Below, piece after piece: positions 62,172 to 64,000 of a DNA stretch of 64,000 nt. Origin of the DNA: a virus (taxonomy: Duplodnaviria > Caudoviricetes); IMG/VR virus record IMGVR_UViG_3300028591_000134, positions 1 through 64,000 of that record; one strand, 5' to 3'. The notes under the pieces are model-generated. The model searched no databases and had not been told where the DNA came from. It was given only the letters and a program-made list of their open reading frames with translations. The position numbers and the translations under genes are program-made. Every line of letters begins with the position of its first letter. Positions within the stretch are counted from its first letter, which is position 1.

Positions 62172-64000
62172 TTTAATAATGTCCTTTTTGATATCGTCCT
62201 TGATTGAACCAACGACATCATTGTTATTTACTATGCACTTTTAGGCAGTGCGTTCTTAGCCTGTGAAGAAAAATTTGTGTTCTTGATTATTTGATACGGA
62301 TACCAGATACTATGTAAGTTTCCTGTACTGTGCTGGTAGTCCTACCAGCCGCTTTTTACTCCCGCATTTTAGTATATACTGTAAAGACAATATATACAGG
62401 AATCCAACGGTAGGATTAGCTGAGCCATTCAATACGGAGAATCCCATTCTTAAAGCTTTGAACGACAGTTTCCCATTCAAGGGATATAATCTTGAACAAA
62501 GTTTTATAAAATAAAACTGACTGGAGATGTTAGCCCCCAGGTGCTTTGCTCGTTGGCGGCATTTCATTACTGACTACCGTTCGTAGAGCCCAAAAAGACA
62601 TGATTTCAATGTATTTTCCAGTTACAAAAGAAATCACGGTGTATGTTTTCTGATTATTATTCAAGCCTAACAGCTAACATACAAAACGTGCTTGTTTCCT
62701 GTTTTCGACCAAATTAGATATTCTACGTGAGGAGTACGTTTCATTATCGGACAGTCTGTGAGCTCCAAAACTCATTCGACCCTACGGCTTTTTGTTGTGC
62801 ATTCAGCTTTGCTGCTGTCTTCTGTTTATAGTGCGCGAATATGAGGAATTCAACCTATACATTATCTACTTTTGTCACCCACTTTACCTTCTTTTCACCA
62901 TCGCGAGACAGGCGACAGCGCGGTCCTGCATACGATTATATCACTGCGTCTAATCAGTTGGTAAAGCTGCCTTGTAAGTATTATTGTATTAGCTTCTACC
63001 TTTCGGGGTACATATAGATTTGCAGTCTATACTTTATCCTGGTTAGCATCATAACGGTTGGCACTCGGTCTGACTCAATATAAAATGGCTACCTCTCCAT
63101 CCCATACAACAGGTGGAAACGGCTTACTACTCCGCTTTTAGGGCGTAATATATCTATCAGGGGACCTCCAATTTTTTGTTAAACATGTTTACGATTCTCA
63201 TTCCTATGGCTTACTTTATACTTTATCTTTACGTACGCTCAAAGCTGTTTCCAATGCAGAGTTGAGTTTATTTAAAGTTTGTATTATCCTATCCATGTAA
63301 GGTAAGGCGGATCTCTTTCAGCACTGGAATATGCTGTGTCGAATCGGCCGTATAATATTTGTGTGTCTGACTGTCAGGTAGTCACCCAAGGTACGTTTTG
63401 CGGAAAGTATTACAGATCGTCTACCATCTGTAAGAGACTGTCTACCATCAGACTTATGAACGCGGTCTCGTGGCGCTATATACTTGCATCGTATATCTGG
63501 TCATTTTGCTTTTATATCCCCGCACAAACGACCAAAGCTAGGCGGGCACATGTACAAACGTATCTCAATATCATACCCCATCCCCGGACCCCTGGTGTGG
63601 GTCAGCAGAGGTTGTGGAATCGAACCACTAGGACTCTCAGATATTACGTAGTTACGGTACGCATTCCAGTAGAATTCTGGCAATCAATGATACTCCATGT
63701 AATTTTCACCCCTTCATATACCGCTTGGAACGGTAGAACACTAGGCTAAGACTTACGAATAAAAGGAACCTTTTCCAGTATGCATCATGTTAGGGTTGGT
63801 GTCTAATATGTTTCAACTCGTGTCTCGTTATGCCATCTTTATGCATTCTCAAGATGGTTTGTCCGATACGGTGCGTTTCTCGGCATCGTCCGCTGACATG
63901 CTTCAGGCGTCTTCCTTACTAATACCCCACACTTCTATGAGTCTGGCAAGAGCATAAAGGACTCTGCTGGTATGTATTAGTGTTAGGGTTGATACAACGC
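62172..64000 (-). ncRNA. Candidate large structured non-coding RNA region (>1.8 kb, may extend past the window)
   Basis: No credible ORF in an otherwise gene-dense genome. Dense local inverted repeats, GNRA-type loops on the minus strand, and a tRNA-like T-arm at 63,614-63,628. Confidence 0.6.

Follow-up and report, generated by a model that had tools for sequence, protein, structure and literature searches.

What occupies the 1,952 nt between two small minus-strand genes of the crAss-like phage recorded in IMG/VR as IMGVR_UViG_3300028591_000134, where no protein-coding gene is apparent? The window analyzed here is the first 64 kb (64,000 nt) of this 101,232-bp virus record, whose closest annotated relatives belong to the Suoliviridae, subfamily Oafivirinae (cr272_1, cr273_1, cr130_1, cr7_1, cr124_1, a Bohxovirus, and Dulem virus 42). 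A preliminary description of the window had pointed to a region of more than 1.8 kb without a credible open reading frame (ORF), and had proposed that its minus strand encodes an undescribed large structured RNA, or several clustered RNAs. This region is real; in the whole genome record the gap runs from 62172 to 64123, 123 nt beyond the end of the window, where it meets the stop codon of a minus-strand 166-aa ORF, and the longest ORF that it contains with translation table 11 is only 137 aa, on the plus strand. The proposal of an RNA is also supported, by a noncoding pattern of change, by conservation in more than 90 related genomes, by covariation, by wobble asymmetry, and by the lack of an Rfam match. 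We are highly confident that the gap is a conserved structured RNA, and it probably encodes a very large noncoding RNA that is present family-wide, of about 1.95 kb and on the minus strand.

The locus lies within an array of minus-strand genes, which in the order of transcription are those for a sigma factor, proteins of 140 aa, 490 aa, and 166 aa, then the gap, proteins of 211 aa and 189 aa, and tRNA-Gln. The placement of the region at the head of the early arm in the preliminary description is thus wrong, because the minus-strand genes (166 aa, 490 aa, and sigma factor) continue upstream of it. Genes for tRNA-Gln (60772-60843) and tRNA-Met (59094-59169) are on the same strand as the gap, 1.3 kb and 3 kb downstream of it.

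Several comparisons show that the gap is noncoding. Stop-free runs in 34 non-redundant genomes are similar to those of shuffled sequence, whether the standard code is used or TAG, TGA, or TAA is read through, and there are no conserved coding frames, code-15 frames included, under any single-stop reassignment. Reading through TAG or TGA within the gap gives only short and inconsistent frames, and the frames that cross its best-conserved motif vary in frame and extent between genomes, with none being consistent. In pairwise alignments of the gap, 4 of 39 indels (cr131_1 versus cr130_1) and 9 of 50 (cr60_1 versus cr4_1) are multiples of three, and the mismatches are spread evenly over codon positions and lack lag-3 autocorrelation; in contrast, flanking coding sequences (CDSs) from the same genome pairs have indels in threes in 2/2, 7/7, 3/5, and 13/15 cases, together with a clear third-position excess. 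Nucleotide identity is 76.6% in the gap, versus 61.7% and 54.1% in the flanking CDSs of the same genome pair, which shows that the gap is under stronger nucleotide-level constraint than the genes around it. A cryptic protein-coding region, using an unusual code, frameshifting, or stop read-through, would have some precedent in that the phage recodes TAG in its late genes, that table-11 ORF deserts elsewhere vanish when TAG is read as glutamine, and that some relatives have annotated plus-strand ORFs of 160 to 168 aa in the gap. However, the random-like stop-free runs, the disagreement of frames over the conserved core, and an indel and substitution pattern so unlike that of the flanking CDSs make such coding scarcely credible.

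What is conserved instead is indicated by base-pair covariation. The alignments contain invariant junction and loop motifs between hairpins, with compensatory changes in the stems. A column-wise helix scan of the whole-length alignment detects just three to seven helices, versus zero or one in a parallel-diagonal null, and RNAalifold gives a sparse structure for it because the variable hairpins are misaligned; we therefore turned to domain-wise models (Table 1). Covariation, which the preliminary description had suggested examining, supports the RNA in all three domains tested, with about 90% of alignment cells paired compared with roughly 30 to 50% in slid controls, and with none of 500 shuffles reaching the observed score in any of them. 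Model R1 matches 97 of 99 loci (E values of 1e-10 to 1e-44); in its model-fitted alignment of 85 distinct sequences, 89.6% of cells are paired (29 to 50% in slid controls), and double-sided changes are present in 19 pairs and 304 cells, versus 5 to 45 cells in the controls. Model R2 matches 84 loci, and the corresponding values from 70 distinct sequences, also in a model-fitted alignment, are 91.5% of cells paired (39 to 49% in controls) and double-sided changes in 28 pairs and 352 cells (23 to 117 cells in controls). The 5'-terminal domain was aligned with plain MAFFT rather than fitted to a model, and here 92.7% of cells are paired across 19 pairs (33 to 51% in controls), with 15 of the 19 pairs and 122 cells having double-sided changes (10 to 28 cells in controls). 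By a block-wise MAFFT/alifold count, covarying pairs occur in nine of ten blocks of about 220 nt.

Table 1. Features of the gap and its 3' border (window coordinates unless marked as genome coordinates)
Feature	Position	Strand	Basis
Locus of the putative giant structured noncoding RNA	62172-64000, continuing to genome 64123	-	No conserved ORF; noncoding indel and substitution pattern; collinear identity; covariation
R1 domain (34 pairs; invariant helix AGUG-GUGA/UCGY-CACU and several variable hairpins)	62716-62907	-	Covariance model R1
R2 domain (41 pairs; T-arm-like hairpin; mutually exclusive pairings at about 63500-63545)	63455-63699	-	Covariance model R2
5'-terminal domain, opening with a hairpin that bears the conserved loop UCUCAUUAG, directly after the stop of the 166-aa gene	Genome 63960-64123 (window 63960-64000)	-	Plain MAFFT alignment
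Hairpin with GCAA-containing loop	63012-63032	-	7/7 pairs covary; 63013-63031 is 93% Watson-Crick, with 6/6 covarying
Terminator-like hairpin with U-run, not clearly conserved	62521-62540	-	Consensus scan; relatives have an AT-rich spacer here
3'-terminal module: helix 62175-62183/62214-62222 around an inner hairpin and the invariant CAAAAAGGA	62175-62222	-	Covarying helix
Gene for 211-aa protein, following the RNA	61536-62171	-	Homologue directly downstream in all loci reaching far enough

Within the R2 domain, the T-arm-like hairpin GUGG-UUCGAUU-CCAC (about 63612-63630) covaries, and the minus-strand segment at about 63500-63545 (columns 398-429 and 466-479 of alignment A4) contains a column, 424, with an alternative pairing. 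This column covaries with two partners, changing from C-G to A-U with column 402 and from G·U to U-A with column 467. Only one of these helices can form at a time, a pattern that points to a pseudoknot, a base triple, or a switch in conformation. A tRNA-like acceptor stem closing 63603-63969 is not supported, as the strand following the T-arm-like hairpin pairs locally, with covariation.

The eight inverted repeats by which the region had been recognized are all exactly where the preliminary description placed them, but as conserved elements only the hairpin with the GCAA-containing loop (63013-63031) stands; the other seven are just 20 to 54% Watson-Crick in the 34-genome alignment. It is in other helices, along the whole gap, that conservation and covariation exceed chance.

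Wobble pairs provide a means of asking which strand is structured, and whether the conserved element acts as RNA at all. In the R1 domain, 406 cells are G·U and 80 are A·C, although this count is biased because the structure was predicted on the minus strand. When helices are instead chosen by Watson-Crick pairs only, 163 cells favor the minus strand and 80 the plus strand, and the bias to the minus strand is strong across 62600-63900. We therefore conclude that the core is very probably a minus-strand RNA, with the same orientation as all neighboring genes. The alternative that the conserved element is DNA, such as a replication origin, a packaging site, or an array of protein-binding palindromes, has in its favor the location in the replication/early module, with a DNA polymerase gene a few kilobases downstream in relatives, and the fact that Watson-Crick covariation by itself cannot separate DNA from RNA; both ends of the gap, moreover, lack the wobble asymmetry. 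This alternative is nonetheless very unlikely given the strong excess of G·U over A·C in the core, the invariant G·U and U·G positions within helices, and RNA-type motifs such as the T-loop hairpin and GNRA-like loops. There is likewise no switch in GC skew, and no tandem repeats or iterons are present in the alignment, and the stretch occurs in RNA libraries.

These libraries are from animals. The public runs that contain the stretch derive from sheep and bovine gut or rumen, and metatranscriptome assemblies from sheep and bovine gut in several studies include 44 to 87% of its sampled words. In three RNA runs from three studies, the 20 kb around the locus is represented by many short contigs of very uneven depth, and a DNA run from one of the same samples yields a single 101-kb contig. 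The pattern weakly suggests RNA-derived coverage of the whole operon, including the gap; contig depth cannot rank genes, and uncovered bins and contig ends are no evidence in either direction. Strain variation is the probable source of the skip joints inside the gap (L101 coordinates 9205>9781 and 9355>9437), whose sides are short.

The locus is not restricted to the phage studied here. Among six Oafivirinae genera, blastn finds 60 to 70% collinear identity over the whole gap, and collinear identity with the syntenic gaps of relatives is 60 to 77%. A search of IMG/VR with a 17-nt core motif recovered 93 loci; 61 of these span the full length, and 34 are non-redundant. ORF-free gaps of 2.0 to 2.2 kb are at the same position in cr131_1 (Oafivirinae), in cr60_1 and cr4_1 (Loutivirinae), and in cr10_1 (Boorivirinae), and in each the gap follows a gene of about 470 to 500 aa and a small gene, and precedes a gene of about 200 aa; its length is thus held at about 1.95 to 2.2 kb across three subfamilies. 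Similarity between Loutivirinae and Oafivirinae gaps is collinear and patchy, and model R1 has a match in cr4_1 at the expected place (24 bits, E value of 6e-5). The cr10_1 gap has no detectable sequence similarity to the others, and its homology is inferred from its size, its position, and a similar 3' end only. From synteny and similarity, the RNA locus appears to be a family-wide feature of the Suoliviridae (delta crAss-like phages), present at one fixed spot.

We found no copy in an assembled bacterial chromosome when 185,579 prokaryote genomes were scanned with the 17-mer. The scan gave 27 exact matches, and only three loci also match R2, all of them on contigs binned into metagenome-assembled genomes (MAGs) and one of them on a contig of phage length in a Segatella copri MAG. 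Two phage-length contigs with the RNA motif, L102 (101.5 kb) and L122 (101.0 kb), are binned in two Segatella (Prevotella) copri MAGs; for L122, which was found by its 17-mer match in the second of these, the stored locus may end before the R2 domain. This binning hints weakly at the host genus, or else is an artifact.

Is this a known RNA? A cmscan search with Rfam 15 (4,227 families) returned no match in the gap, at E values of ≤1-5 for this phage and ≤0.1 for six relatives; GOLLD, ROOL, transfer-messenger RNA (tmRNA), RNase P, and introns, for which the preliminary description had suggested this search, are all without a match there. Nor did Rfam or ARAGORN identify a tmRNA, RNase P, or rRNA in the gap. 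The same Rfam searches do match tRNAs, two group I introns, RAGATH-9, RAGATH-20, and permuted tmRNAs elsewhere in these loci, and the method therefore works on these genomes. Full-text literature searches gave no description of this RNA, and Yutin et al. (2021; PMC7886860) report unexplained ORF-poor regions occupied by short ORFs and nothing more.

A further class to be considered is that of introns. Group I introns are abundant in delta crAss-like phages (PMC7886860), and Rfam identifies two in this genome (minus strand, genome 69001-69203 and 70659-70905; 63 to 66 bits), 5 to 7 kb upstream of the RNA locus, which itself is in the size class of a group II intron with an ORF. A decayed or ORF-less self-splicing intron, or another mobile RNA element, could thus have become fixed early in the family. 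However, there is no group I or group II match in the gaps of seven genomes (E ≤0.1, or ≤5 in this one), including to Intron_gpII or the group II D1-D4 models, and the group I model (RF00028) found the two upstream introns in the same search, as a positive control. The locus also departs from group I and group II introns in lying between genes rather than within one, in lacking any catalytic-core match, conserved ORF, intron-encoded protein, or endonuclease or maturase remnant, and in having a fixed position and purifying selection over its whole length across subfamilies. An intron origin is accordingly highly improbable.

Comparison with GOLLD (RF01998) and ROOL (RF03087), large "ornate" RNAs that bacteria, phages, and prophages encode, with structures determined by cryo-electron microscopy (PMC12286853), reveals the common properties of carriage by phages and elaborate structure. 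Like them, the locus is near tRNA genes and has many short helices with conserved junctions and loops, but it matches neither family in sequence or structure, is confined to crAss-like phages of Bacteroidota, and has fixed synteny inside an operon, adjoining a co-conserved protein gene. ROOL and GOLLD are roughly 600 to 800 nt, and by these sizes the locus is about two to three times longer.

The gap may contain one RNA or several, and we judge the chances of one continuous functional RNA to be about even. The main alternative is a cluster of independent small or medium-sized structured RNAs together with an extended structured 5' leader for the 211-aa gene, each element having its own ends. 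Only local helices have been established; the long-range candidates have at most one covarying pair, no long-range closing helix was established among them, and a single RNA is therefore unproven. A minus-strand terminator-like hairpin (62540-62521), where relatives have an AT-rich spacer, may be the end of an upstream RNA unit. A second terminator-like hairpin, on the plus strand, is at 62332-62349 in this genome, and the arrangement of hairpin and subsequent GCUUU (GCTTT(T); 62332-62355) is kept in many relatives. It looks like an intrinsic terminator of the plus strand. No plus-strand gene is near 62332-62355, and the element could instead be a normal helix of the minus-strand RNA with AAAGC before it. 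Conservation dips at 62272-62320, 62672-62720, 63072-63170, and 63922-63970, covariation is weak in the block at 63080-63300, and the strand signal of the core is unlike that of the ends (62172-62640 and 63880-64123), which have no strand bias. On the other hand, the length of the gap is maintained across three subfamilies, the homology is collinear from end to end, and consensus scans for promoters and terminators gave counts not above those in shuffles, with no conserved pairs inside the gap. We regard the cluster as unlikely and continue to favor a very large RNA.

The features just described that would divide the gap weigh against the proposed large RNA, and several other points also do so. 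The minimum free energy (MFE) of 250-nt windows is not below that of dinucleotide shuffles, with mean z scores near zero on both strands (minus and plus, respectively, -0.04 and -0.27 for this phage, and -0.23 and -0.64 for cr130_1), and the earlier characterization of the region as hairpin-dense beyond chance is thus without thermodynamic support. Covariation was quantified on about 600 of the 1,952 nt, with the remainder covered by the cruder MAFFT/alifold count, and the R1 and R2 alignments, being fitted to the model structure, lean towards it. The contigs from RNA libraries carry no strand, ends, or level and could include DNA carry-over, and in one RNA run the gap is no deeper than the neighboring gene. 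Finally, the function of the RNA is entirely inferred.

The RNA has links to the gene that follows it. In each of the 76 loci extending far enough, a homologue of about 195 to 224 aa comes immediately after the RNA, and by hhalign the profile of the 211-aa protein matches the genes downstream of the gap in cr60_1, cr4_1, and cr10_1 (probability of 97.8%, E value of 9e-13); a search for related loci with the single 211-aa protein gave no match. The outer helix of the 3'-terminal module, which is the last helix of the RNA, has double-sided changes in five of its seven pairs and stops 3 nt short of the AUG of the 211-aa gene, so that at least the 3' module must be on the mRNA of this gene. The module looks like a translational operator, and resembles the leaders and operators of ribosomal-protein operons, phage coat-protein genes, and RegA-type systems: in this locus a covarying helix sequesters the purine-rich stretch near the AUG, and gene and RNA always occur together. 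Whether it regulates the 211-aa gene we consider an evenly balanced question. Known mRNA leaders range in length from tens of nucleotides to a few hundred, and the approximately 1.9 kb of conserved structure before the gene is far beyond what an operator needs; we know of no regulator or ligand for this leader-like RNA.

The preliminary description had also named the 211-aa protein as a candidate partner of the RNA. The association at the level of the genome is borne out, in that gene and RNA are conserved together in different subfamilies and the last helix lies right next to the start codon of the gene, but the pairing itself remains a candidate, and we view a ribonucleoprotein (RNP) of the RNA with this protein as doubtful. 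An AlphaFold2 model of the protein (mean predicted local distance difference test [pLDDT] score of 80.7) has an alpha/beta domain and a C-terminal helix of about 50 residues. The protein has no Pfam or PHROG family and no useful match in the protein atlas, the model has no Foldseek match in the PDB at E ≤0.001, and VIA-align matches only the long helix (Z of about 4). Of the proteins encoded upstream, that of 490 aa is predicted by AlphaFold2 (pLDDT of 77.8) to be all-helical with a basic, disordered N terminus, and is similarly without a Pfam or PHROG family or a Foldseek match at E ≤0.001; the 166-aa protein has no tblastn match.

We propose that the RNA would fill the whole space from the stop of the upstream small gene to the start of the approximately 200-aa gene, and that it would be transcribed within a polycistronic early/middle operon, in which case at least its 3' module would be a structured leader, or a translational operator, for the downstream gene. 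By analogy with the other large ornate phage RNAs, the bulk of it could be a stable scaffold that acts during infection, alone or as an RNP. A more ambitious version, in which the whole 1.95 kb is one RNA of defined architecture that forms a machine or shell, whether an RNA-only assembly, an RNP with the co-conserved coiled-coil protein of about 200 aa, or a ribozyme, is possible, although we incline against it; if true, it would imply a role in infection of Bacteroidota, such as the takeover of translation or a block to host defense, without a described counterpart.

The tight nucleotide constraint and the single position across subfamilies imply an important RNA-based function, in phages that rank with the most abundant viruses in the guts of humans and animals. 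Should the gap encode a single molecule, its size would be two to three times that of the largest ornate RNAs of bacteria and phages, no larger structured non-ribosomal RNA would be known from a phage, and it would be a prime target for structural work and, with a Suoliviridae phage in culture, for genetics. The gaps are presently annotated as empty or with spurious small ORFs, and models such as R1 and R2 would enable their correct annotation.

Other structured RNAs are encoded 5 to 8 kb upstream in the same operon region of these phages. RAGATH-9 and RAGATH-20 are identified by Rfam in Loutivirinae and Boorivirinae (at 1480-1637 and 2572-2673 in L130 and at 816-994 in L132), and the Suoliviridae early region therefore holds several RNA genes. 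Permuted tmRNAs are at the equivalent upstream place in cr60_1 and cr10_1, and there is no match to a tmRNA model in this region of the genome studied here; because the relatives carry a permuted tmRNA there, that of this phage may be interrupted by an intron. The catalogued RNAs show that these phages are rich in RNA genes, and they share with the 2-kb locus both the phages and the operon region. They differ from it in being 100 to 400 nt long and having Rfam models; the 2-kb locus has no model and no detectable similarity to them. A tRNA-Lys gene (genome 68764-68837) is also upstream of the RNA locus. In the window itself, 53192-53275 and 53462-53527 (minus strand) are reported as tRNAs by Rfam (52 and 34 bits) and not by ARAGORN, and may be tRNAs with unusual loops or introns.

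With regard to the genetic code, table-11 ORF-free stretches of 1.2 to 3.2 kb within positions 1-47000 (for example, 43874-47053 and 28446-31124) are gone once TAG is taken to encode an amino acid; TAG is recoded in the late genes, and the early arm has no need of such recoding. At 60963-62171 (minus strand), reading TAG as glutamine joins the 211-aa and 189-aa ORFs into a 402-aa frame over two TAG codons. Lastly, in two RNA runs from sheep gut, contig depth peaks over a 199-aa ORF at 53662-54261 (minus strand; depths of 209 and 1,848, versus tens elsewhere), and, with contig depth taken as a rough guide, this gene may be very highly expressed.

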